From sequence record OR083247.1: a stretch of 64,000 nt of DNA; one strand, 5' to 3'. The translations under genes were made by a program, and so were the position numbers. This stretch comes from Escherichia phage Bf23. Positions within the stretch are counted from its first letter, which is position 1; every line of letters starts with the position of its first letter. The notes beneath the pieces were generated by a model. That model was not told the DNA's origin. It ran no database searches and worked only from the letters and a program-made list of their open reading frames with translations. This document shows positions 1 through 11,055 of the stretch, in pieces.

Positions 1-122
1 GCTCACTGCCTCCGGCGAAAATACTTAGTCTGCTAACCGCCACACCCGTTATTATTACCATGCTAACTGTTTCACCCTGCAACCATTTTAATTGCAAGGT
101 GAAACAATTTCAACCTTAATTA

Positions 123-857
123 TTATGCGACTTTTAGTTTTTCAATATATTGTTGCGGGCTGCAACTATATTCTGCGCGTTCTTCCTCGGTCATACTTTC
201 CCAACATAATTGCAAGCGATCGGCTAGGAACTGATAATCATTATCATCGTCGAGCGATTCATCGATAAAGGTTTCACCTATCAATGTCACGCCGATTGAT
301 AGAATATCATTAATAGCTTGTGCGTCCAGCGTTTTAAACCCGTATGATGCCGCCGCCGATAGCACGCCCTTATGATCATCAATCATCGTGAAATCAGCGT
401 TTGGATATAGCTGTTTAAATAACTCAAAGTAATGGCTTTTATATATAGCATCTTTACTGTGGTATATTTCGCTAACTTTATCAGCCTCAAAATATTTGTG
501 TAGTGTGTCGCGGGAAAATACACGGATATTACTATCCCCACGCCCTCGCAGTCCTTGTTTGCGTAGGTAATAATAATCTGACTTACTCATCAGTCGAGCG
601 GTACAAATAATGTTTAACGTGTTAACGTCATTCATACATTGGCGCATATATGTAACAAGCGGCAATAGTGTGTCCTGCATTATTAAATCATGTTTACATG
701 CTTCATTCTTATATTTATTTAAATCTAAATTACCATCGTTATCAAAGCAAGGCGCTACGCGATGGAATGAGTTAACGATAGTGCCGTCCAGATCCCAGAT
801 CATGACGCGGGAAATATGCGGGAAATTACGGGTAATATTCGTTTTAACTTGATTCAT
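123..857 (-). CDS. dmp: 5'-deoxyribonucleotidase, HAD-like (T5 Dmp-like)
   Basis: 244-aa ORF; N-terminal HAD motif 'MIWDLDGTIVNS'; first gene of the pre-early block as in T5. Confidence 0.75.
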   Translation of the reverse strand: MNQVKTNITRNFPHISRVMIWDLDGTIVNSFHRVAPCFDNDGNLDLNKYKNEACKHDLIMQDTLLPLVTYMRQCMNDVNTLNIICTARLMSKSDYYYLRKQGLRGRGDSNIRVFSRDTLHKYFEADKVSEIYHSKDAIYKSHYFELFKQLYPNADFTMIDDHKGVLSAAASYGFKTLDAQAINDILSIGVTLIGETFIDESLDDDNDYQFLADRLQLCWESMTEEERAEYSCSPQQYIEKLKVA

Positions 858-931
858 TTTGTTACGTTCTCCATTAAAGGGATTAAATTAAATTAATCCA
901 GCCCACTGGATGGGCTGGGCTATTCCAGCTA

Positions 932-1327
932 TTAAAGACCATAAGCCAACGCATCAGCGATGACGGTAATATCTTCACCCGATACATCGGAACGGATGCC
1001 CGCGCATGTAAATACTTTTGCGCTCATTAGCTGATCATCAAGGCAAGCGGGACAAGGGGCAACTACTGCGAAAGCTAAACCTGATTTTACGGCATCGATG
1101 ATAATCGTTTCTTGTTTCACCGTGTCAATATAAACGCCTTTCGCCTTGATGCGGCTGGATAACTTGCCCGTGGTATAGGCGAAAGTAGTGATCTGTAGCG
1201 CCTCGTTAAACTCGATTAAATCATCGACAACGTGACCGGCCTCAACGTGATACCGCTCACCATTAGAATAAACTAGGACGATAGAAGACTGAGCGCGATC
1301 GAATGGAATACGGTTAGAAATAGCCAT
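932..1327 (-). CDS. hypothetical protein
   Basis: 131-aa ORF between dmp and A1, same strand, tight spacing. Confidence 0.4.
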   Translation of the reverse strand: MAISNRIPFDRAQSSIVLVYSNGERYHVEAGHVVDDLIEFNEALQITTFAYTTGKLSSRIKAKGVYIDTVKQETIIIDAVKSGLAFAVVAPCPACLDDQLMSAKVFTCAGIRSDVSGEDITVIADALAYGL

Positions 1328-1396
1328 GTTTATAACTCCAATTAATTTAATAAACTTTTATAGCGGCGGTATATTTCAACCGCCAACCTGATTTAT

Positions 1397-3061
1397 TTAC
1401 GCAAAAAATTTACCATTCTTAAAGTCAATCAAGGTGCGCTGACCGTTTGCATAGGTAATAACATGCGTTTGTGTCCAGCTTGACGCGCCAACGTTGTAAC
1501 CCATGTCCAGACTACCAGACACGCCAGCGGTGTATACGCCGCCGTAAATACTGGCGGTATGAGTGTGCCCCGTGTTCAGTTTACCCAATTTCTTAAATTG
1601 CTTCGGATTGCCACGGCTCCCGTTAATGCCATTGTGACCGTGTACGCCGCATTCAATGCCTGCAATCTTGAAAGATTGGTCAGTCGTTAGGAAAATGGCG
1701 TTAAACTCGCAACCTGCAACCTTGCGCAACGCATAATCTAGCACGTTGAAAGTATCGTCTTTTTCTGCAATAGCTCCATAAATCGCGGCATTAAGGCGGT
1801 GATATAGTTCGGCGTTGGCTGGATCGTCTTTGATGTTAGCATTACGATCATCCAGCCAACGGGATAGCGCCAGATCGTGGTTTGATTCTACGATGATCGT
1901 TTGAGAAAAATCGCGCTCCATTGATTCCAACACGCGACCGGTATCGATAAGATCATCCAGAACTTTATCACGTCCGGCGGCGTATTGTTTTGCTAGGAAT
2001 ACACCCGAAGCGCGATTGTGATGGTTGCGTGATGTAAAATCATGCACGTCATGGACAAATTGATATTTTGGTTTAAGAATATCAAGCAAGCTATTTTCGC
2101 CAGCCCATGACGCAGCGGCGCAATCATCATCCAGTTTTTCAGCGTGGACGTCGCCATATTGTAAACCTAAAACGTGCCCCGTTGTTTCATAGCATCCGGC
2201 GGGAGTAGCGCAAACATTCAGATCGTAAAAAACGCCGCTTTCGTCCATAGTTTCAAGCTGGCGCACAAAAAACTCACCGTCCTCGTCGAACTCGACAACA
2301 AGCGCACCGAAATTATGCAACGCTTCCGCTTTCTGTCCTGCTTTCTGCTGGATGTAGTTTTTTAGCGTTGCCGTGCCGGTTGAATACATACGGCGCACTA
2401 CTTCACCTTTTAAAGCTGGGACGCTCTCGGCGGTGATTTTAGCCGCTCCAATTGCCAGACCTTCAAGGTTGAGCGCGGTTGCAGTTTCAGCAAATCCAGA
2501 AAGCGGATAATCTGCGGTAGGTAAAACGTTAATTTCAGCCATGAAAGCAAAGCGGCGATTATTCAAAAACACGTTTTTATTGCAGATATATTTGTCAAAT
2601 GCGGAATCATATTTGATTCCTTCGGCGCCCTCGCCATTTTGAAAACCGTTTTTGTTATAAATAAACTTGCTAACCAGCAAATCAGCGCCGATATATTTAG
2701 CAAATTGCTCCAGTGAGGCTAAAAAGTTTTTATGCGGGAAAGTATTATTCTGAATCGACGTAATAATAAAGCGTTTACCCTGCTTTACTTCCCAGCTTTC
2801 AACCGTGCTAGAAACAATCCCCGCCGCTTCTGGGCGCTCATCGTTTTTAATGGCTTTTGCTACTTTCGCCGCTTTCGGTTTAGCTGGTTTATTTGCTTCC
2901 AACCAATCACAAATCGCGGTCGAGTGTTTTGTAGTATCATAGACCGCCTTTGATATATCGTCGCAGACTTCCAGTTTAGTGGCGCGCAGACGTTTACCAT
3001 AGAAATTAAAGTCAGCGGCCATTTTCAGGATAACGGTTTGTTTTTCTGCGGAAATAATCAT
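1397..3061 (-). CDS. A1: A1-like pre-early protein with calcineurin-like metallophosphoesterase motifs
   Basis: 554-aa ORF; motifs 'GDVHAE', 'GHTHT', 'VESNHD'; size and position match T5 A1. Confidence 0.7.
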   Translation of the reverse strand: MIISAEKQTVILKMAADFNFYGKRLRATKLEVCDDISKAVYDTTKHSTAICDWLEANKPAKPKAAKVAKAIKNDERPEAAGIVSSTVESWEVKQGKRFIITSIQNNTFPHKNFLASLEQFAKYIGADLLVSKFIYNKNGFQNGEGAEGIKYDSAFDKYICNKNVFLNNRRFAFMAEINVLPTADYPLSGFAETATALNLEGLAIGAAKITAESVPALKGEVVRRMYSTGTATLKNYIQQKAGQKAEALHNFGALVVEFDEDGEFFVRQLETMDESGVFYDLNVCATPAGCYETTGHVLGLQYGDVHAEKLDDDCAAASWAGENSLLDILKPKYQFVHDVHDFTSRNHHNRASGVFLAKQYAAGRDKVLDDLIDTGRVLESMERDFSQTIIVESNHDLALSRWLDDRNANIKDDPANAELYHRLNAAIYGAIAEKDDTFNVLDYALRKVAGCEFNAIFLTTDQSFKIAGIECGVHGHNGINGSRGNPKQFKKLGKLNTGHTHTASIYGGVYTAGVSGSLDMGYNVGASSWTQTHVITYANGQRTLIDFKNGKFFA

Positions 3062-3157
3062 AGTAATAAAGCTCCATTAAAGGGATTAAAAACGTTTGTT
3101 ATTGGCAAATATTGCCAAATATAACGCCTTGAATAATAGGCGTTATAATTTGCAACA

Positions 3158-3403
3158 TTAATTTAAAGGCATAAGGCTAGAACTAACACCACAAGCAACG
3201 GCGGCAATAAAACAAATCAGACCTAAACGCTTTGCCAATTTAGACTTACGCTTAAAATAATATGAATCTAAATCATTTTGAAAGTATGCAAATAATAATG
3301 AGGCCGCCATAATAAATAAGCCTAGAATTAACGATTCAGTGGGGTAAAAGATCATTTTAATAACTCCAGTCAAAGGGAAATTATAGTGGGGAATATTCCC
3401 CAC
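3158..3403 (-). CDS. small membrane protein
   Basis: 81-aa ORF with two hydrophobic segments. Confidence 0.35.
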   Translation of the reverse strand: MGNIPHYNFPLTGVIKMIFYPTESLILGLFIMAASLLFAYFQNDLDSYYFKRKSKLAKRLGLICFIAAVACGVSSSLMPLN

Positions 3404-3412
3404 TAATTAAAT

Positions 3413-3829
3413 TTATTCACCTGCGGCTTGTTTTACTTCATCGGCAACGCCTAACAGTTGCGCCACGGCGTCCAGCGTTTCTAACTTTGCGCTTTCCAGA
3501 CTTGCCAAATCGTCGGCGTCTTTGATAATGCCGGAATCAATAGCATGTTTAGCGATAACGCGTACATAATGAGCTTTGCGAATTGAACTACCGCCGCCAA
3601 CTTTGCGCGGCTTATCGCTTTTCTGATACGCTTTCGCGCTGGTCAATTTTGAGCGAACAGACACGGGAGAAGCCGCGCCAACTGTTTTAGCAATCTCTTT
3701 CAGGCCGTCGCTGTTGGCGAACTCCAAGCCGTTTTCGTTGATCAACTGTTGATACATGGTAACAGCCTGTTGGGTGTTTTCTTCATTCCAAGCAAATTTT
3801 GCGGATTTTTCGGTTTTAACGTTAGCCAT
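3413..3829 (-). CDS. putative A2-like pre-early DNA-binding protein
   Basis: 138-aa ORF directly upstream of A1 on the same strand; assignment by position and size only. Confidence 0.4.
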   Translation of the reverse strand: MANVKTEKSAKFAWNEENTQQAVTMYQQLINENGLEFANSDGLKEIAKTVGAASPVSVRSKLTSAKAYQKSDKPRKVGGGSSIRKAHYVRVIAKHAIDSGIIKDADDLASLESAKLETLDAVAQLLGVADEVKQAAGE

Positions 3830-3927
3830 GATTATAACTCCTATTGAATTAATTTAAGGGATAAGATTAACATAATGTTAATCGTTATATACCCCAAACT
3901 ACTGGGGTATATAAAGTTAACACTAAG

Positions 3928-4179
3928 TTATAAAACAGCTTCCCATTTTTCGTTGCGTTGAACAACCTTTACAACGTCGCCGGATTTAACGCGAACGCTA
4001 AAAACGGTTTTGCCGTTGTTACTACGTTCATTTTCAGCGTATACCGCGTCGATTGTATCAAACGGCATAAGCGCCACACCTTTAATGCGTTCGGTTTTTC
4101 CGGTTAATTCGTCCGTTTTAGTAACGAAAGGAATAAAAACGGATTGACCAATTTTAGGCGCGGTAATAACGTTTTTCAT
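3928..4179 (-). CDS. hypothetical protein
   Basis: 83-aa ORF, same-strand operon context. Confidence 0.4.
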   Translation of the reverse strand: MKNVITAPKIGQSVFIPFVTKTDELTGKTERIKGVALMPFDTIDAVYAENERSNNGKTVFSVRVKSGDVVKVVQRNEKWEAVL

Positions 4180-4406
4180 AGTATAAACTCCTAGTTATTT
4201 GGGGATTGTTCCGCATTACCTGCTAGAAAGTAGCAGGTAATAAGAAAAAATCCGCTCGCCAATATAATCAATTTAAAGAACTCCACTCAGGCCGCTATAT
4301 CCCAGTTAGGGGGCGGGACACATTATGGTAAGTGCCGACCGTCAAATTGTATCAAGTTATCGCTCTTATCGAACTGGGTACATCTTAAAGCCTATCGGCT
4401 AGGGTG

Positions 4407-4610
4407 TCAAACAATTTTTTGCAGTTTTTTATGATTTTCTTTCAGGTCAATCATAATATTTCGCCAGATCATTTCCAGACCTTGCTGGCGGCCTTTCTTG
4501 TACTGCGTGAATCTATATCTTACGGATTGTTGAGCTACTGTCAACAATTTTTTAGTAGTAACATCTAATTTTTTAGCTGGTTTACCAGTGATCAAAAGCG
4601 TTTGTTTCAT
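4407..4610 (-). CDS. hypothetical basic protein
   Basis: 67-aa lysine/arginine-rich ORF. Confidence 0.3.
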   Translation of the reverse strand: MKQTLLITGKPAKKLDVTTKKLLTVAQQSVRYRFTQYKKGRQQGLEMIWRNIMIDLKENHKKLQKIV

Positions 4611-5060
4611 ATCTGCGATTCCTTATATAATTGATAAGTTTACCGCCGATAGACTTTAAGATGTACCCAATTTTTAAAGAGCGTGGCGGTAAACTTCCCG
4701 CCGTGTAGTTCGTCATTGCCGCCCTACGAGATAAATAATAGGGGATTCCCAAAAATGGCGCAACCTTATTTTTGTAAAGAAACGTAAAGAAAGCAAATAC
4801 TCGCAAGGTGTCCGGCGATTGCCCAAGTTTAAAGGAAACGGGCGCACGAATACCATAAAACCCAGCAGGTTGGCAAGTAATTTTTTCATTTATATTTGCC
4901 TTACCCTACTTGACAAAATCTAAAAAGCTCGTGGTAGCGATAAACGAGGGTAGGCAATGCAATGGCCTGGCTAAAACTTTCATCGCGTTCTAGGGCGTTT
5001 TAGGCGCATTCTAGCCTTGTTGATAACTTATCCCCAGAAGCAAAAATGAAATTTTCCTAG

Positions 5061-5093
5061 TTATCCACTTGACTTTTATTTTCCAGTGGATAA
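5061..5093. repeat. inverted pair of DnaA-box-like 9-mers (TTATCCACT ... AGTGGATAA)
   Basis: read directly; near match to DnaA box TTATNCACA. Confidence 0.6.
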
Positions 5094-5376
5094 CTACTTA
5101 TTTTATGAAATAAATTAATTGACTTTTATTTGTTAGTATGCATCGGAAAGATAGCAGACTAATAATTGCTAGGATGATAATCATGCTGGTGGATTGTAAC
5201 GGCTTAAACTATCAGCGGACTATTAATCACGGAAAATCTCGTTAGCTAACTAACTATTTCATGATGTATAATATACATATAAATTAATGAGAAATAATAA
5301 TTATAATAAATAATAACTACAGTAAATAATAACTATAAGAAACTATCGGCCTAAGTGAGAACCACTATCATTTAAG

Positions 5377-5458
5377 TTATCCACAAGTTTATTAACAGCA
5401 CAAAATGATTTGACACGATAGGCGGCGATATAAAGACTTATCCACAGACTTATCCACA
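5377..5458 (+). promoter_or_regulatory. three direct perfect DnaA boxes TTATCCACA (5377, 5438, 5450)
   Basis: exact 9-mers read in sequence, inside a non-coding AT-rich region. Confidence 0.65.
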
Positions 5459-5468
5459 GGTTATCCTA

Positions 5469-5484
5469 CTGTATAAATATACAG
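5469..5484. repeat. 16-bp perfect palindrome CTGTATAAATATACAG (copy 1)
   Basis: identical palindrome recurs at 8956-8971. Confidence 0.7.
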
Positions 5485-5750
5485 GGTAAATGGGTAGTGT
5501 TAACAACTGCAATCAATTTTAAGCGGCCTAAAACGCTTTCTAACGAGCTAAATGCGGTGGGGTAATATTAAAGTAAAGCCTTCACCCGTCGCCCTGGTGG
5601 CTTCGCCGTGTTTTGCTCTTTACTATACCGCTGCGCGGTTAACATAAAAATAAGCGTTAGGCAAGGAAAATAAAAAGGTAAAATAATATTTGCCCCTAGA
5701 AAGAAAATACCTTTATCATTCACTCACCGATTAACGAGGGAGGCCAACAA

Positions 5751-6743
5751 ATGAGGCTATATAAACCAGATAACGCAACCGTCTTAAAAGGTGCGCTGCG
5801 TAACCTGCTGGACGGTAGCAGAACAACCAGCATTAAACACTTTGTTAACAAGGCCGAAGATATTCACCAAAACTTTTTTGATGATTTCGATGCCTATGAT
5901 ATGAGTAGTTTTTTACAACTGTATAAGCAAGGGGCAACGCTTGTTTTGTATAATCGAGATAATCACCTGCTTACTAGTAGGGGGCCGGATACCGATTTCA
6001 TAATTGTAAAAGGTAGCACAGTAAAAGCCTATGACACTGGAGCGGGCTTAGAAGTTTTTTCAATAGAAAACTATGAAGCCAACCCCAATGATCTTTATGA
6101 CGTTGAAAACTTTCTTGATTCATTTTGGCGTTATTTATCCGTTGGCTGGAATCGGTCAATTGGTGACGGGTATCGTCTGGCGGCTGTAATGACCTTTGAT
6201 GATGATGGCAATTTTTTGCTACCGTCGGAAGTATACCCATACGTATATGATGGGGATATAGAAAGCGCGGGCTTTTCTTTCTGGAAAGAGGGGAATCAGC
6301 CTATTGACAACACGGAAAAACATGCTGTAAATTCTAACACTCAAAGCGTTAATACTCAAATCACTGAAAACAAAGGAAAAAACACCATGACCAAGATCGC
6401 TAATATTGTTGCCGCTAATAAATCCGCTGTTGTAAACGCTGCAAAACTGGAAGCGGGTAAAATTGCACTGACTCAAATTACGAAAGTAGCGGCTAAAAAA
6501 GCGCCGTTCATGATCAAAGGCTATATTGATACGCCGATTGGTCGAGTAGTGATTGCCAACCTGCTTAGCGTAGCGGTTGACCAGTACGCCCCGAGTAACC
6601 AGAAAGCGAAAGCGGTAGCAGGGGCAGCTATGGAAGCGGCAATGCTAGAAATGGTGCAAAGTTTTAACATCGCTGAGATGATCGATGAAATGGTAAAAGG
6701 TATCGATATTTCTACTTTCACCGTTAACAACGAAAGCGAGTAA
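5751..6743 (+). CDS. hypothetical protein
   Basis: 330-aa ORF; RBS 'gaggga' upstream; Ala/Lys-rich C-terminal third. Confidence 0.5.
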   Translation: MRLYKPDNATVLKGALRNLLDGSRTTSIKHFVNKAEDIHQNFFDDFDAYDMSSFLQLYKQGATLVLYNRDNHLLTSRGPDTDFIIVKGSTVKAYDTGAGLEVFSIENYEANPNDLYDVENFLDSFWRYLSVGWNRSIGDGYRLAAVMTFDDDGNFLLPSEVYPYVYDGDIESAGFSFWKEGNQPIDNTEKHAVNSNTQSVNTQITENKGKNTMTKIANIVAANKSAVVNAAKLEAGKIALTQITKVAAKKAPFMIKGYIDTPIGRVVIANLLSVAVDQYAPSNQKAKAVAGAAMEAAMLEMVQSFNIAEMIDEMVKGIDISTFTVNNESE

Positions 6744-6808
6744 TAATATTAAGCGGGGATTGTTACCCCGCTTTAATGTTCCCTTGTTAATTAATAGGAG
6801 GCTAATTA

Positions 6809-7303
6809 ATGGCTGAAGAAAAATATGGCTTCTCACTGGGAGAAGTGAGCACGGCAAAACATGATATGATCATTTTGGTCGATTGCCATACTGGCTATTG
6901 CGGAGAAGGTTGGACGGAGGAACATTTTGTTCCAGCTGGCTGTAATCTGGACGCTTTCGCTCAGGAAATGGCTATTGATAATGCTTCTCGTTTTGGTAGC
7001 GATGGTTACGAAGACGAAGAAACTGGCGAATGGTATGAAAATGAAAACGTATATGCAAGCCTTTATCATTATCAGCTAAGTAAATCCGGCACATATGTAA
7101 ACGGCGGCGATCCTATTAATTCCGTCATGAAATTAATTATTAAATATGGCGGAGTAGAGATAGTTGGTAACAAAGCGGTAATATACGCAAACCGATTAAA
7201 ACAGCTTGTTTATATTCCTGATAGTACCCGATGGGATGAATATGCTGTTTTGCATGACGAATTGAAACGATGTTTCAATATTGAAACCTTACAAGTAGTC
7301 TAA
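6809..7303 (+). CDS. hypothetical protein
   Basis: 164-aa ORF with RBS 'aggagg'. Confidence 0.5.
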   Translation: MAEEKYGFSLGEVSTAKHDMIILVDCHTGYCGEGWTEEHFVPAGCNLDAFAQEMAIDNASRFGSDGYEDEETGEWYENENVYASLYHYQLSKSGTYVNGGDPINSVMKLIIKYGGVEIVGNKAVIYANRLKQLVYIPDSTRWDEYAVLHDELKRCFNIETLQVV

Positions 7304-7407
7304 TGTAAAGTTTTGTAAAGGTCGCCTTTTATGGTGGCCTTTTTTGTTATAATGCTTTTACACCAAAACGGTGGATTGAAAATTTCCCAAAAATTTGGAG
7401 GCTTAAA

Positions 7408-7638
7408 ATGGTTGCATATTCTTCTTCTGACGCTCTTTTCACTGGAAAAGGCTGGGTATCAAATCGCTGGATCATTCATGAAATGGTGCAAGAATACGGC
7501 ATTGCTAAAACTTACACTACCATCCAGGCGCTTTATGATAATGATCAAATTGATCAGCAAACGGCTGGTTTTTTGCTGGATACCCTGAAAGCGGAGCACT
7601 GTACTAAAAAACAAGCCGCCAAAATTGTTTTAATGTAA
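7408..7638 (+). CDS. hypothetical protein
   Basis: 76-aa ORF with RBS 'ggagg'; hairpin after stop. Confidence 0.45.
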   Translation: MVAYSSSDALFTGKGWVSNRWIIHEMVQEYGIAKTYTTIQALYDNDQIDQQTAGFLLDTLKAEHCTKKQAAKIVLM

Positions 7639-7836
7639 TTAATAACGGGGCGTTACTTTCGCCCCGCTAACTAGGAGAATGAAAATGGTTATTTTTCGAG
7701 CTATTCTAGCAGGTATCTTGGGCGCTATTTTATCCCTTTTTGCTATAGCTTTTGGCGTTCACGCGGTTACTATTGGTGCTGGCATTGCTGTATTTTCTTA
7801 TCTGCTGGGCTGCATGACTAGTAAAGGAGAATAAAA

Positions 7837-8049
7837 ATGATCCGCAACGTTTCTCTTGCACGTTCGAAAGGCTTTAAGCTGGTGGATGTTAACACGTTCG
7901 AGCGGGAAGATTGTAAAATCGAATATGTAGCACGTAATAAAAATGCCTTTCGTGTTACCGAGAAAAAATTCGATAAGCGGGGCAACGTGATAGCTGAAAC
8001 GGTTAAACATTTTGCCACCTTTTACGCTGCATTTCGTGGGGTACTATGA
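7837..8049 (+). CDS. hypothetical protein
   Basis: 70-aa ORF with RBS 'aaaggaga'. Confidence 0.4.
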   Translation: MIRNVSLARSKGFKLVDVNTFEREDCKIEYVARNKNAFRVTEKKFDKRGNVIAETVKHFATFYAAFRGVL

Positions 8050-8170
8050 AAAGCGTTATTGTTGTTATCCTTGCAATGGTTGGAGGTTTTACCGCCACCT
8101 TATTTAAGAATGACCCCCTTTTACTGGGGGTTTTTATGCTTTTATCTGGATACCTGATTGGGAGGTTATA

Positions 8171-8517
8171 AAATGGTTATTTATGAAGGCAACCGCTTTG
8201 TTACTAATTGCCGTCCGGCATTACTAGCAAACTACTTAAATCAGCTTTCCCCAGCTTATAAGGGCGTCATTAATATTTATGAAGGCAAGGCGCATTATAA
8301 AATTAATGCGGTCGTTGCCCGTGAACTAGCGTTTCAATTTTTGACCTTTGCATCTTGTGATATTCAGGTCATGGGTGAGGCGTTAATTGCAGAAAATGAA
8401 GATGATTTTATTAATATTTTTCGCAAAGTATGCACCGAGCGCCTGATAATGAAAGGCGCATATATTCAATCCACTGCGGATAGTATTGAAACAGCGTTTC
8501 GAAAGGTGGCACAATGA
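8171..8517 (+). CDS. hypothetical protein
   Basis: ORF-track start trimmed to ATG at 8171, preceded by RBS 'gggagg'. Confidence 0.45.
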
Positions 8518-8617
8518 AATTATATATTTTCGCGGGTAATGTTGAGGCTGCAAATGATTCCGCTGGTGGCGATAACGTTCGCCACTATTGGCAAAAATAT
8601 ATTTACTAGGCGTTATT

Positions 8618-8812
8618 ATGAGCAATAAAATTATTATAACTAAAACTACCACAATGGTTGACGTTTTTTATGTGCCCGATACGCTGGAAAACCGGCGAGC
8701 GGTCGAGCGGGGCGAATATGATAGCGTTATTTATGATGCCGATGGTTACTACCGGCATTTGGTCGATTCCTATGGGGAGGAGGAGAAGATCACGCATCAA
8801 TTACCGGACTGA
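8618..8812 (+). CDS. hypothetical protein
   Basis: ATG at 8618 (ORF track begins at an upstream TTG); terminator follows. Confidence 0.35.
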   Translation: MSNKIIITKTTTMVDVFYVPDTLENRRAVERGEYDSVIYDADGYYRHLVDSYGEEEKITHQLPD

Positions 8813-8818
8813 TAACAA

Positions 8819-8841
8819 GCGGGGAGCAGATCCCCGTTTTT
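8819..8841 (+). terminator. rho-independent terminator
   Basis: hairpin GCGGGGAGCAGATCCCCG followed by TTTTT. Confidence 0.6.
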
Positions 8842-8955
8842 CACGCCTCCAGTTAAATACCCCTTTGTTTTAGTATCCCCACCAAAATTAAACGCGTTAG
8901 AATGCGATTCAGGACGTTTTAGGCGTATATTAGAATTATTCACTACGTAGGAATA

Positions 8956-8971
8956 CTGTATAAATATACAG
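8956..8971. repeat. 16-bp palindrome CTGTATAAATATACAG (copy 2)
   Basis: exact duplicate of 5469-5484. Confidence 0.7.
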
Positions 8972-8993
8972 TAGAATAACTTGGGGATAAGTC

Positions 8994-9063
8994 TGTGGAT
9001 AACGCCTCAAAATGGCTGGGATTCTGTCAAGTCAAATCGTGCTGTTAATAAGTCTGTGGATAA
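8994..9063 (-). promoter_or_regulatory. two DnaA boxes in reverse orientation (TGTGGATAA at 8994 and 9055)
   Basis: exact reverse complement of TTATCCACA read twice. Confidence 0.6.
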
Positions 9064-9089
9064 CTTAAATAACAGTGTTTCTCACTTCC

Positions 9090-9275
9090 GTTTTTAAATG
9101 CGAATCATTATCATTCGCATTTCACTATCTAACCGATAATCATTCCACTTTTTAAATGAGATTGATTCTCATTTCACTTTCTAAATGCGAATTATTATCA
9201 TTCTCATTCCGCTTTTTAAATGAGAATGATTCTTATTATCATTCTCATTTAGCGCAGGGCAATTGCCCTGCGCTT
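9090..9275. repeat. family of four related palindromic hairpin units plus a perfect 24-bp palindrome AGCGCAGGGCAATTGCCCTGCGCT
   Basis: units of form TTTAAATG(C/A)GAAT...ATTC(G/T)CATT, each an inverted repeat. Confidence 0.6.
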
Positions 9276-9880
9276 TTGTGCAAATCCGACATTTGCTCCA
9301 AGGGTTACGTGCTGGCGTATATGTGCAAATCCGACAATTTTTGGTAGTGTGCAAATCCGACCCGAAAAATTTTTATAGTGTGCGAATCCGACAATGAATT
9401 TTCCTAAAAACTCCAGCAATCACGAACTGCGTTCGAATCCTGTGGGATATGTGCAAATCCGACACGGTTTTTCTAGGGTTAAGATGTGCGAATCCGACAA
9501 GATTTTTGTGACTTCGATGGGAGGGTGTGTGATTGTATAGGTTTGAGGGGAAGATGAGAGAGCGAGAAAAATTTGAGGGGATAGAAGGATGTGGGCGCAG
9601 GATTGGTGCGGAGCACCTGATTTGCGGGGATTTTGGGGAAGAGTTGAGATAATTTGGGAAGATTTGAGATAGGTGCAGAAAAAGTAAAATTTTATTAGCA
9701 AAATGGGGCAAAATAGCTTGACAAGTGAAAATTCTTGTGGATCTAAAAACTCAGGCAATCACGGGCCTTCGGCCCGAAATAATGCTGCTATTTTCAGGAG
9801 AGTAAGAGTTCCTAAAAACTTAGGCGTTTGTGCAAATCCGACCAGTTTTTAAACTCTTGTCAGTGTGCAAATCCGACAGT
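9276..9880 (+). repeat. array of nine direct copies of 14-bp motif TGTGC(A/G)AATCCGAC, irregular spacing
   Basis: copies near 9278, 9323, 9349, 9379, 9451, 9486, 9829, 9864 and one more; a tenth lies at 11654 inside a CDS. Confidence 0.7.
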
Positions 9881-10341
9881 AATTTCTGGAAATGTGTTTT
9901 CAAAAAATGTCTTCTAGAAATAACCGCCCTCCCTATAACCGCCCTGTATTAACCGCCTATTGCTAGAGTTTCTAGGAACATGAAAACCGCCTGGGTTAAC
10001 TAGAGTTTTCCTAGAAACTTAGGAGTCTAGAAGAAAGTGTTGTGCCATCCTAGCAGATGAGCGGCAACAGGTGTATCATCTTGAACACAGATATTGCCAT
10101 TAAAAATATTTAAATAATATAAAGAAAAAGAGACCCCCAATTTCATGAGAGTCTCTCAGGGGGCGCGTGATTAATTACGTGAGTACTCATGCCGTCATAC
10201 CGCTGTTGCTAGGCCGCAAGCTATACGAGACATTCGTGTAATAATCATCGCCCCTAGAGTTAATCAACTAGAGTAGTTGTTAATCTATGAGATTATTATA
10301 ACATGTTTGGGTATGAGAATGCAAGAACTTTTTGTTAACTT

Positions 10342-11055
10342 TTATTCCTCCTTCTTGGATTTGAGTTTGATACCTAAGGATGCGAAGTAGATATAAGTTG
10401 CTAAATAGGAAGCAGTGGATCCTGTATCATCGTAATCCATAGTTCCACGAGCTGCTCTAGTATACTCCGGAGCGTAGTTTAATATCGTGTAACTTGGCAT
10501 TCCTAGCGACTTACATAGTTCTTTAAATGTATCCTCGTACTTGTGGCACATGAAATGCACAGCATTTTCTAGGGGCGTTAACTCTAGATCTTTATGGAGA
10601 GCTACTGTCAAACTCGCTAACATCGTGCCAATCCCACGATAAACTTCATCTTTAACTAGAGTTGGTTTCTCTTTTTCTAGTGGAGGAAGGTGGGCATATT
10701 TGCCATGTTTGAAAGGGATAAGATCTTCGCTAGCTAATGCTTCTTTAAATGATGCTTCCTTAAATCTTGGGAGATCTTCATCGATTAGGATATGAATCGC
10801 ATTAGAGGAGAAACCCTTTGCTTCAGGATCTAAAGCTTTCAATGCTTTATTCACCTCTACGTATGAGCCTGACCAAACAACTTGTTTTGCATCACGATCA
10901 TATTTGATCTTACCCTTATCCCACTTAGCAGGATAATGATCCCCTAAAAACATTACTGCATATTTTTCTTCATCAGTTAGCTGGGAAAGACTCTTTTGTG
11001 TAGCACCACGCGCTAACTGAATGAGACGTTTTAATTTTTCAGCTTCTTTAATCAT
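10342..11055 (-). CDS. hypothetical protein
   Basis: 237-aa ORF, first gene of the minus-strand early block. Confidence 0.5.
   Translation of the reverse strand: MIKEAEKLKRLIQLARGATQKSLSQLTDEEKYAVMFLGDHYPAKWDKGKIKYDRDAKQVVWSGSYVEVNKALKALDPEAKGFSSNAIHILIDEDLPRFKEASFKEALASEDLIPFKHGKYAHLPPLEKEKPTLVKDEVYRGIGTMLASLTVALHKDLELTPLENAVHFMCHKYEDTFKELCKSLGMPSYTILNYAPEYTRAARGTMDYDDTGSTASYLATYIYFASLGIKLKSKKEE

Follow-up and report, generated by a model that had tools for sequence, protein, structure and literature searches.

DnaA-box inverted repeats around a pre-early gene cassette of a T5-like phage carry putative LexA operators

The first-step-transfer (FST) DNA of phage T5, which makes up the 8% of the genome that enters the cell first, is associated with 131-bp repeats whose DnaA boxes are paired 3 bp apart (Davison 2020, bioRxiv 10.1101/866236). 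The paired boxes were reported in 1987 (Heusterspreute et al.) and analysed by Davison (2015, 2020), and the repeats are described as IRC-spacer-IRD and IRD'-spacer-IRC' (Heusterspreute et al. 1987; Wang et al. 2005; Davison 2015; Davison 2020). Davison proposed that they form part of the injection stop signal, and DRE2, a repeat with an ortholog in the DNA analysed here, contains the calculated FST shear point of T5 (Figure 3 legend, 10.1101/866236). The mechanism of the second transfer step, for which A1 and A2 are needed, is described as poorly understood in papers of 2023 and 2026. The T5 origins are reported to lie near the genome centre, with the replication genes still outside the cell at the FST stage (Davison, 10.1101/866236). 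In the published T5 accounts the terminal palindrome is no more than that, or else a possible site of A1 cleavage, and LexA, SOS, Fur and promoters are unmentioned in them.

We analysed a 64-kb stretch of Escherichia phage Bf23 DNA (OR083247.1; 64,000 nt, "the window"). Its best match is Escherichia phage vB_Eco_mar004NP2 (91.8% identity) and 532 phage records match in all, which identifies the window, as judged from these matches, as that of a T5-like phage (Demerecviridae), as the initial annotation had guessed, with a Tequintavirus-like terminal repeat. The two DnaA-box clusters of the left end are the arms of a single 147-nt inverted repeat, 76% complementary (Table 1). Like the T5 repeats, they lie in non-coding FST DNA on both sides of a variable pre-early cassette, they form an inverted pair homologous to the T5 arms (147 nt here, 131 bp in T5), and each holds two DnaA/DnaA* pairs 3 bp apart (5377/5389 and 5438/5450 in the proximal arm, 9055/9043 and 8994/8982 in the distal arm); none of the open reading frames of at least 50 aa listed for the window overlaps either arm. 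With the same position, a repeat length of ~131–147 bp, the same pairing and 77–81% nucleotide identity to the T5 arms, the window element is an ortholog of IRC-spacer-IRD / IRD'-spacer-IRC' without structural difference, and on this sequence evidence the core motif cluster is one already known, published as the T5-family DnaA-box inverted repeats. That the element already stands in the literature had escaped the initial annotation. In T5 itself, the distal arm falls within the annotated injection stop signal (iss; misc_feature 9140-10149).

Table 1. Features of the left end of the window, in window coordinates
Feature	Position	Strand	Details
Left terminal repeat = first-step-transfer (FST) DNA	1 to about 10,000		
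"Repeat Region 1" DnaA-like boxes, head-to-head pair	within 5018..5096		TTATCAACA (5018, -), TTATCCCCA (5028, +)
"Repeat Region 1" inverted pair	within 5018..5096		TTATCCACT at 5061 (+) and 5085 (-), within 15-nt inverted repeat 5058-5072 / 5082-5096
Proximal arm, non-coding	5353..5499	+	T5 IRC-spacer-IRD ("Repeat Region 2") ortholog; BLAST to T5 6098-6237, 81% identity
Outer DnaA pair, proximal arm	5377..5397	+	TTATCCACA (5377-5385), agt, TTATTAACA (5389-5397)
Inner DnaA array, proximal arm	5438..5469	+	TTATCCACA (5438), gac, TTATCCACA (5450), gg, weak TTATCCTAC (5461-5469)
Putative LexA operator (SOS box), proximal	5467..5486	.	TACTGTATAAATATACAGGG; HI 4.91, below about 12/18 genuine E. coli operators; conserved family-wide
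Conserved inner-flank block (IRB-like)	5523..5578	+	CCTAAAACG..TCTAACG..GGTGGGG
Variable pre-early gene cassette	5751..8812	+	gene 011 homologue (DUF7566, 5751-6743), 164-aa ORF, small ORFs
Intrinsic terminator of cassette operon	8820..8841	+	CGGGGAgcagaTCCCCG then TTTTT; T5 homologue annotated 9275-9296
Inverted partner of inner-flank block	8862..8927	-	partial third copy at 4975-5010
Distal arm, non-coding	8941..9087	-	T5 IRD'-spacer-IRC' ortholog; BLAST to T5 9411-9542, 77% identity
Putative LexA operator (SOS box), distal	8954..8973	.	TACTGTATAAATATACAGTA; 19/20 positions fit consensus TACTGTATATATATACAGTA; HI 0.97
Inner DnaA array, distal arm	8971..9002	-	weak TTATTCTAC (8971-8979), TTATCCCCA (8982-8990), TTATCCACA (8994-9002)
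Outer DnaA pair, distal arm	9043..9063	-	TTATTAACA (9043-9051), TTATCCACA (9055-9063)
Six Fur-box-like palindromes (DRE repeats)	9097..9243	.	directly outside distal arm

The exact box TTATCCACA occurs at 5377, 5438 and 5450 on the plus strand and at 8994 and 9055 on the minus strand, against 0.76 occurrences expected in the window; none of 100 shuffles reached five, and all five are confined to two patches of ~90 bp. The cluster coordinates of the initial annotation are thus borne out, well above chance; its inverted near-consensus pair at 5061/5085 consists of TTATCCACT within a short inverted repeat. What it had missed are the degenerate boxes TTATTAACA (5389, and 9043 on the minus strand) and TTATCCCCA (8982, minus strand), which fill out the known layout of pairs 3 bp apart, the head-to-head pair of Repeat Region 1, and a third, weak box at a distance of one more helical turn (TTATCCTAC, 5461; TTATTCTAC, 8971, minus strand). 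In the proximal inner array, start-to-start spacings are 12 and 11 bp, and the last box overlaps the putative LexA box by 3 nt.

An alignment of 68 unique arms (48 loci) showed the boxes and the operator to be 94–96% conserved, as against 65–78% for the spacer and flanks, with indels absent from the stretch that joins box a to the operator and with the most conserved columns in the proximal inner DnaA array. Boxes 1 and b fit TTWTNCACA in 54 and 49 of the 68 arms. Substitutions, counted as unique arms and not as independent events, pile up at the consensus-degenerate positions 5 (84) and 3 (25), together with a recurrent C6A (76), while positions 1, 2 and 4 are nearly invariant (4, 1 and 8). 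The 9-mers match the consensus, vary at positions that the protein tolerates and are under purifying selection as DnaA boxes, in line with the original reading; DnaA probably binds them. The palindrome and the three-box array are retained in fixed register from Escherichia to Vibrio and Proteus phages, and the association of the motifs survives even in relatives that can no longer be aligned (Vibrio SJ1, Skimmer and D149; Proteus Stubb). The proximal arms of Vibrio SJ1 and Proteus Stubb are degenerate or without DnaA boxes.

When the module pattern was searched for in IMG/VR, it matched only T5-like contigs of 95–123 kb. In 596 Gb of bacterial genomes (185,579 species genomes), the same pattern yielded only two mis-binned T5-like fragments and one chance match, and BLAST of the 59-bp core found no match in 5,426 E. 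coli genomes or 72,556 plasmids. Given this lack of matches in bacterial genomes and plasmids, the module does not appear to have been visibly borrowed from a host regulatory region.

The duplicated 16-bp palindrome CTGTATAAATATACAG, placed correctly by the initial annotation at 5469 and 8956, has an expected count of 0.04. Its likeness to a LexA/SOS box had gone unnoticed there. Extended to 20 bp, the palindrome closely resembles TACTGTATATATATACAGTA and has a low heterology index (HI; lower values are closer to consensus), which we computed with a symmetrised matrix from only 18 genuine operators (sequences from PMC3009722 Table 4), so that our values should not be set against published HI numbers. 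On this scale the distal copy lies below all 18 genuine E. coli operators (range 1.84–12.2), outscoring umuD, sbmC, istR2, recA and sulA, while the next best 20-mer of the window stands at 10.47. Across the family, the HI is 0.97–3.99 in 34 unique distal arms, with a median of 4.91 in proximal arms, where the LexA box is weakened (ACAA) in several phages. Observed substitutions depart less from the LexA matrix than random ones do (mean HI change 1.87 versus 2.65), which, with seven variants and P about 0.06, is only suggestive. The operator centre flips between AAAT and ATTT without single-step intermediates.

We take the palindrome to be, on its match to consensus, a near-perfect LexA operator that LexA probably binds, and this point is apparently new: our literature search for T5 together with LexA, SOS or Fur box returned no paper drawing such a link. 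TyrR and CRP-type sites were rejected as readings of the palindrome, since their half-site spacing presumably does not suit it. The distal copy shares with SOS boxes of Gammaproteobacteria the CTGT-N8-ACAG arrangement with an AT-rich centre, at 19 of 20 consensus positions. Unlike ordinary SOS boxes, the phage copies have no demonstrable promoter overlap, belong to a strictly lytic phage, are fused to a DnaA array and come as two per terminal repeat, in inverted arms. Coliphage 186 (tum), GIL01 (with gp7) and CTXphi (rstA) likewise use host LexA through a canonical operator, but there the operator governs a defined lysogeny or induction promoter, whereas here it would sit in the non-coding DNA of a virulent phage, putatively tied to entry.

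The putative operators point inward at the cassette, the content and orientation of which vary by lineage. The segment from arm to arm measures 1.8 to 4.2 kb among relatives, with genes gained and lost, and the Klebsiella-phage and My1 lineages carry the cassette in inverted orientation with respect to A1/A2 and the early genes. These observations strengthen the earlier notion of an inverted-repeat-bounded cassette; that it marks an ancient insertion is not supported, as the arms are family-wide and their host-factor motifs would have been lost from an insertion scar. A Pfam scan of A1, A2 and six cassette ORFs returned DUF families only, with no recombinase domain among the eight, and orientation differs only between lineages, so that the segment does not resemble a programmed invertible one of the Hin/Gin/Cin type. 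The distal arm lies between the terminator of the cassette, just upstream, and the Fur-like array. Fur-box-like sites number seven in the window against 0.47 expected, and the T5, Klebsiella, My1 and Vibrio lineages all keep the array beside the distal arm. With permissive E-values, an Rfam scan over 4300-10600 gave nothing near gathering scores; its weak PrrF and rliI matches lie in the DRE repeats.

What might such an element do? LexA boxes are normally operators, and both of these face a cassette that the arms flank in either orientation, the distal one directly 3' of the operon terminator, so the arms might be transcriptional operators or roadblocks at the cassette borders, repressing weak inward promoters or blocking read-through from the very strong pre-early promoters with no direct role in transfer. 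Weak promoter-like hexamers do overlap the box on the minus strand (5503-5476, TTAACA-16-TATATT; 8964-8935, TTTATA-18-AATAAT), but no properly spaced -35/-10 pair is conserved across the arms, the 5503-5476 candidate is absent in T5, and the invariant spacer TTGACA lacks a -10 partner at 16–18 bp. The characterised gene-011 promoter lies ~200 bp downstream of the operator (T5 6411-6489), and our promoter scan hardly exceeded shuffles (27 sites versus 18.4 +/- 5). We consider this explanation somewhat unlikely and, as the arms hold no conserved sigma-70 promoter, did not adopt an operator of a promoter as the best reading. The conserved palindrome could also be read by a phage protein, a point that bears against LexA: A2, annotated as DNA-binding, could bind it or A1 could cut it, as in Davison's "restriction enzyme" model, in which the palindromes are candidate A1 cleavage sites, and the likeness to LexA would then be coincidental or competitive. 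Both proteins are required for the second transfer step, which speaks for such a target. Against it, A1 and A2 have no Pfam domain indicating sequence specificity, the variants observed (CTGG, CCAG and centre flips) occur in genuine LexA operators, and a 19/20 match to the host consensus, above every genuine operator tested, is unlikely to be a coincidence; we regard a phage-protein target as improbable.

Homologous arms could, alternatively, serve as a recombination substrate or cassette boundary that allows inversion and exchange, with the host-factor motifs incidental. The inversions and size changes described above fit this, as do the flips of the operator centre, but homology by itself gives no reason for conservation to peak exactly at DnaA and LexA consensus positions next to a drifting spacer, or for the motifs to remain in relatives whose arms no longer align; nor do the eight scanned ORFs, without a recombinase domain, or the presence of both orientations only between lineages and not within one, favour an account that we find hard to credit. 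The clustering and phasing of the boxes, which recall oriC and plasmid origins, and an AT-rich stretch (5260-5340) adjoining the proximal arm could suggest a replication origin, or else a sink for DnaA that would disturb initiation in the host. Indeed, oriC, datA, DARS and plasmid origins (P1 oriR, F, RK2) show the same high-affinity boxes seeding an in-phase array to a weak site at 11–12 bp. In contrast to those arrays, the phage element has no DNA-unwinding element, IHF site or GATC cluster (neither arm contains the IHF consensus WATCAANNNNTTR or a GATC) and forms a mirror-image pair kilobases apart, and the AT-rich stretch is much shorter in T5, which does not fit a DnaA-dependent origin. 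The central T5 origins and the absence of replication genes from the cell at the FST stage also speak against this, and titrating DnaA has no obvious use for a lytic phage whose host loses its DNA within minutes. The titration and replication roles entertained in the initial annotation are therefore not supported, and we hold them to be very improbable.

The motifs' identity, strength, geometry and conservation, and their restriction to the T5-like family, are shown by the sequences compared and searched; as a tentative best explanation of these properties, we suggest that the arms may serve as a non-coding landing pad where host proteins control two-step DNA transfer. Each arm would offer two outer DnaA boxes separated by 3 bp, a spacer of ~40 bp, then two inner boxes and a weak third at one-turn spacing, with a high-affinity LexA operator in register that shares 3 nt with the weak box. 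On entry of the FST DNA, host DnaA and LexA, and possibly Fur, would load onto these sites and assemble there into a stable nucleoprotein complex, at the inner edge of the DNA that has yet to enter. Such a complex could be part of a brake or anchor holding transfer at 8%, perhaps as a tether or as a block to pull-in by RNA polymerase or diffusion, until the pre-early proteins A1 and A2 lift it. A role as a transfer control element, already put forward in the initial annotation, agrees with the published hypothesis of a putative injection stop signal (Davison, 10.1101/866236).

That the sites are linked to the injection stop itself is possible, and we put it forward with more doubt than the landing pad. 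Several points run against a brake: the proteins would be bound to DNA already inside the cell, yet would have to halt entry of the rest; the proximal arm lies 3.5 kb before the stop point; and there are the weakening of the proximal LexA boxes and the decay of the proximal arm in Vibrio SJ1 and Proteus Stubb. T5 plates on recA laboratory strains, which rules out LexA cleavage as an obligatory release step. The most elaborate form of the idea, in which the FST border would be a composite pad for three host regulators, all of them abundant and conserved, with DnaA arrays and a consensus-strength LexA operator in each arm, a Fur-box array at the calculated stop point, and the stop built from host repressors on the incoming DNA, seems unlikely.

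LexA and DnaA sites would account for a non-coding block being better conserved than anything else in a region that is otherwise hypervariable. For annotation, it is of value that the arms can enclose the accessory pre-early cassette in either orientation. So far the stop has a single molecular hypothesis, which invokes DnaA, an essential protein that is hard to remove; LexA and Fur, unlike DnaA, are dispensable, and mutants exist, so that they would offer a genetic handle on the T5 stop along with the exact bases to mutate. If the composite reading with three regulators is true, the 60-year-old injection stop would be tuned in strength or duration by the state of the host, through SOS, iron and DnaA-ATP.

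The two DnaA-box clusters are the arms of a single 147-nt inverted repeat, whose halves (here the proximal and distal arms) are 76% complementary and flank a plus-strand ORF block. The exact box TTATCCACA is matched five times where 0.76 matches are expected, a count reached in 0 of 100 dinucleotide shuffles, and two copies of the palindrome CTGTATAAATATACAG are present where chance predicts 0.04. All of the positions reported in the initial annotation, for the boxes, the palindrome copies and the inverted near-consensus pair, hold, and the pattern is genuine and far from random. The arms are non-coding, with no ORF of at least 50 aa overlapping either of them.

Positions of the features in the window and of their counterparts in related phages
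Feature	Window	T5 and relatives
Proximal arm	5353-5499	
Distal arm	8941-9087	T5 9411-9542, within annotated iss 9140-10149
Exact box TTATCCACA	5377, 5438, 5450 (+); 8994, 9055 (-)	
Near-consensus box TTATCCACT, within a 15-nt inverted repeat	5061 (+); 5085 (-)	
Palindrome CTGTATAAATATACAG	5469; 8956	
Centre-switching LexA box	5469-5484; 8956-8971	orthologous arms
Inner-flank block, both arms	5523-5578; 8862-8927 (rc)	
Inner-flank block, partial third copy beside head-to-head DnaA* boxes 5018 and 5028	4975-5010 (rc)	
AT-rich insertion	5260-5340	mostly missing from T5
ORF block; inverted cassette in relatives	5751-8812	L005 9846-12061; L003 10370-12838
Gene-011 promoter	~5690-5719	T5 6411-6489 (mapped)
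Cassette terminator hairpin	8820-8836	annotated in T5 homologue
Fur-box-like array	9097-9243	L002 (T5) 9552-9715; L005 8903-8991; L003 8518-8635; L004 9183-9238
Fur-box-like sequence in dmp	230-248	L002 (T5) 231-249
GC-rich palindrome	9251-9272	near T5 9748-9749
DRD repeats	9267-9499; 9819-9885	

The region matches 532 phage records, every one of them T5-like (Demerecviridae; top match Escherichia phage vB_Eco_mar004NP2, 91.8% identity), and its gene order from position 1 (dmp, A1, A2, small ORFs) is that of T5. The direct terminal repeat takes up the first ~10 kb in annotated relatives (1-10020 in Kenya-K18; 1-10219 in T5, where the left terminal repeat ‘comprises first-step-transfer DNA’), and the arms therefore lie within first-step-transfer (FST) DNA, the portion (8% of the genome) that is injected ahead of the pause. 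Three non-coding repeat regions have been described in the T5 left terminal repeat (Davison, preprint ‘Phage T5 two-step injection’, 10.1101/866236), including a 131-bp inverted pair in which IRC-spacer-IRD forms Repeat Region 2 and IRD'-spacer-IRC' forms Repeat Region 3. The T5 DnaA and near-consensus DnaA* boxes occur without exception as pairs 3 bp apart, with eight in each FST region, are kept across 25 T5-like phages and were originally noted in 1987 (10.1101/866236); the abundance of repeats, palindromes and DnaA boxes in the region was restated by 2023 and June 2026 papers. The window arms are 77-81% identical to the T5 arms, the distal one of which falls in the annotated injection stop signal (iss). 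Because the arms match these published repeats, the core finding is a correct rediscovery: the DnaA-box reading of the initial annotation was right, but the inverted-repeat element is already known, and the suggested transfer control role matches the standing published hypothesis that membrane-bound DnaA captures the boxes, whereupon injection stops (10.1101/866236). Directly left of the proximal arm, the window also has a very AT-rich insertion of ~80 nt; in T5, the interval between Repeat Regions 1 and 2 instead contains an HNH endonuclease gene (hegG) together with a strong promoter directed leftward.

For comparison, the adjacent A2 protein, and not the motif itself, served as the anchor for gathering loci (43 from IMG/VR, to which T5, Kenya-K18, one Klebsiella phage, Pectobacterium phage My1 and one Vibrio phage were added). 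Two inverted arms, separated by 1.8-4.2 kb, are present wherever the flank of a locus extends far enough, except in Vibrio SJ1, which has the distal arm only. An alignment of 68 unique arms shows a single fixed layout, AAG-(box 1)-nnn-(box 2)-spacer-(box a)-GAC-(box b)-GG-(box c), with an invariant TTGACA in the spacer. In the inner array (boxes a-c, spaced 12 and 11 bp start to start), the weak box c, TTATCCTAC, overlaps the palindrome TACTGTATAAATATACAG(TA), sharing 3 nt with the operator described below. Boxes 1, b and c reach majority fractions of 0.94, 0.95 and 0.96, respectively, and the palindrome core 0.95, against 0.72 in the spacer and 0.65-0.78 in the flanks. Differences within boxes 1, 2, a and b (counted over unique arms, not independent events) fall at position 5 (84) and position 3 (25), both degenerate in the DnaA consensus TTWTNCACA, and in a recurrent C6A variant (76), while positions 1, 2 and 4 are almost invariant (4, 1 and 8); at box a, TTATCCACA, TTTTACACA and TTTTGCACA swap among arms. 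Such variation would be expected if selection preserved DnaA binding. Conservation is centred on DnaA and LexA consensus positions at fixed spacing.

The 16-bp palindrome is a predicted LexA operator. Its distal copy, flanks included, is TACTGTATAAATATACAGTA (8954-8973; the proximal counterpart is 5467-5486), one position off the LexA consensus TACTGTATATATATACAGTA as quoted in PMC8072944. We scored candidates with the Berg-von Hippel heterology index (HI; lower is closer to consensus), using symmetrised counts from 18 genuine E. coli operators (PMC3009722 Table 4). The distal box has an HI of 0.97, lower than all 18 genuine operators, the best of which are istR2 (1.84) and umuD/sbmC (2.00; 1.98 and 2.17, respectively, on leave-one-out); the proximal box TACTGTATAAATATACAGGG, at 4.91, is better than ~12 of the 18, and the next best 20-mer across the 64-kb window scores 10.47. 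Values range from 0.97 to 3.99 (median 0.97) for 34 unique distal arms and from 0.97 to 8.07 (median 4.91) for 32 unique proximal arms. The operator variants seen in relatives (CTGG, CCAG and centre flips between AAAT and ATTT) are found in genuine operators or are matrix-neutral, and the seven observed single substitutions have a mean HI change of 1.87, compared with 2.65 over the full set of 60 possible changes; with P ~0.06, this only hints at substitutions milder for LexA. The AAAT/ATTT switch at the box centre is seen both from phage to phage and from arm to arm, with no single-step intermediates, and the window's two copies read alike on the plus strand despite the inversion of the arms, which suggests 4-bp centre flipping or gene conversion between arms.

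DnaA boxes and a LexA-like box stay together even in relatives whose arms are no longer alignable. Vibrio phage SJ1 has two consensus DnaA boxes 3 bp apart and a weak box, then the operator (distal LexA-like box, HI 3.45); in Vibrio phage Skimmer, TTATCCACAaccTTATCCACC lies 7 nt ahead of one LexA-like box (HI 2.58) and TTATCCACA is directly fused to a second (HI 7.82). Consensus DnaA boxes stand beside two of the three LexA-like boxes of Vibrio phage D149 (HI 4.91, 5.6 and 8.44), and a pair of LexA-like boxes in Proteus phage Stubb (HI 2.58 and 6.99) brackets the cassette. Davison considered the palindromes possible A1 cleavage sites, and the words LexA, SOS and promoter do not occur in that text (10.1101/866236). 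No paper in the searchable literature links T5 or T5-like phages to LexA, and within it our reading of the palindrome appears to be new.

A degenerate pattern of the fused module, made up of box b, box c and the half-sites of the operator, matched 58 stretches among 2.9 million viral contigs; the 31 contigs that carry them are all 95-123 kb, the size of T5-like genomes. Applied to bacterial and archaeal genomes (596 Gb), the same pattern found three matches. Two are MAG contigs of 2-3 kb with a complete T5-type arm (CALJZR010000013.1, ‘uncultured bacterium’, and RZZU01000077.1, ‘Clostridia bacterium’), which are almost certainly pieces of T5-like phages binned wrongly; the third, without boxes, is a chance match. 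BLAST with the 59-bp core against 5,426 complete E. coli genomes and 72,556 plasmids gave no match. The module is limited to the T5-like phage family, at the borders of the FST cassette, with its distal copy in the annotated iss.

A conserved block, CCTAAAACG..TCTAACG..GGTGGGG, recurs in the inner flank of each arm; in it, ~10-bp periodic CT(A/G)(A/T)AACG units are followed by TTTAATTTTGGTGGGG, and it has no Rfam match. The cassette terminator, a hairpin plus TTTTT, precedes the distal arm, and the gene-011 promoter maps ~200 bp from the operator. Directly outside the distal arm are six palindromes with at most three mismatches to the Fur-box palindrome AATGATAATnATTATCATT (7-1-7 core TGATAATnATTATCA, the classical GATAATGATAATCATTATC shifted by 3 nt), and the DRE repeats are arrays of such palindromes (e.g. 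AATGCGAATCATTATCATT). The window has seven sites at this threshold vs 0.47 expected, a statistic that overstates independence since array copies repeat one another within the genome. More weight rests on conservation between lineages: arrays of this kind also border the distal arm in T5, Klebsiella, My1 and Vibrio phages, with a single mismatch in the Vibrio site AATGATAATCATTCTCATT. The calculated T5 FST shear point lies in DRE2, part of this array, in a text that mentions neither Fur nor iron (Davison, 10.1101/866236), and the searchable literature holds no report of a Fur box in T5. Another Fur-box-like sequence, ACTGATAATCATTATCATC (2 mismatches), lies within the dmp coding region ~230 bp from the genome end; it is kept in T5, and Klebsiella-type loci have sites at similar positions. 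A perfect 22-bp GC-rich palindrome, GCGCAGGGCAATTGCCCTGCGC, separates the Fur-like array from the first DRD repeat, and in T5 the major 7.9% single-strand interruption is annotated nearby. The DRD repeats of the T5 literature, at least eight direct copies of the ~15-nt TGTGCAAATCCGACA, lie past the DRE array, before the terminal repeat ends.

The cassette of variable pre-early genes between the arms is 1.8-4.2 kb long among relatives. In all Tequintavirus/Epseptimavirus-type loci, a gene 011 homologue (DUF7566) and a 164-aa gene lie on the strand opposite A2; in Klebsiella-type (L005, L043-45) and My1-type (L003, L046-48) loci both genes, with their order kept, lie on the A2 strand. Past the distal arm, the early genes of both groups still run in the A2 direction, so the inverted part is the segment between the arms, which supports the ‘inverted-repeat-bounded cassette’ of the initial annotation. 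No recombinase was detected by domain search of eight cassette and neighbouring ORFs, and both orientations are seen only between lineages, and we therefore read this as rare homologous inversion, not a programmed switch.

How might these elements work together? Host DnaA and LexA would load onto the arm sites once FST DNA enters, and the complex, possibly lengthened by Fur on the adjacent array, would help to hold transfer at 8%, perhaps by tethering, as Davison proposes for membrane-associated DnaA, until A1 and A2 release it. Judging from the motifs, binding of DnaA and LexA to the arms is quite probable, whereas a braking action of the complex is a tentative proposal: the proximal arm lies well away from the stop point, some lineages can dispense with it or have it in degenerate form, and proteins bound in the cytoplasm are not an obvious stop to entry. 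T5 grows on recA strains, and LexA cleavage is therefore not a required release step. Taken as a whole, a host-protein landing pad contributing to two-step transfer has, in our judgement, nearly an even chance of being correct.

The other explanations are not mutually exclusive with this one. The arms could be a transcriptional operator or roadblock, which we consider unlikely, as they show no conserved promoter geometry. That they are mainly a recombination boundary is improbable, since this would leave the motif-focused conservation unexplained, and we give equally little weight to the palindrome as a phage-protein target, which would not explain a better-than-natural match to the host LexA consensus. 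Least probable is a replication origin or DnaA sink: the arms lack an IHF site, GATC and a conserved unwinding element, and T5 biology as summarised by Davison (10.1101/866236) disfavours it. Neither the titration nor the replication role raised initially is supported; nor is an ancient insertion. To the known element, our analysis adds the predicted LexA-operator identity of the palindrome and its fusion to the DnaA array, together with the neighbouring Fur-like array and the documented inversion of the cassette, and these additions make the old question of T5 DNA transfer easier to test.
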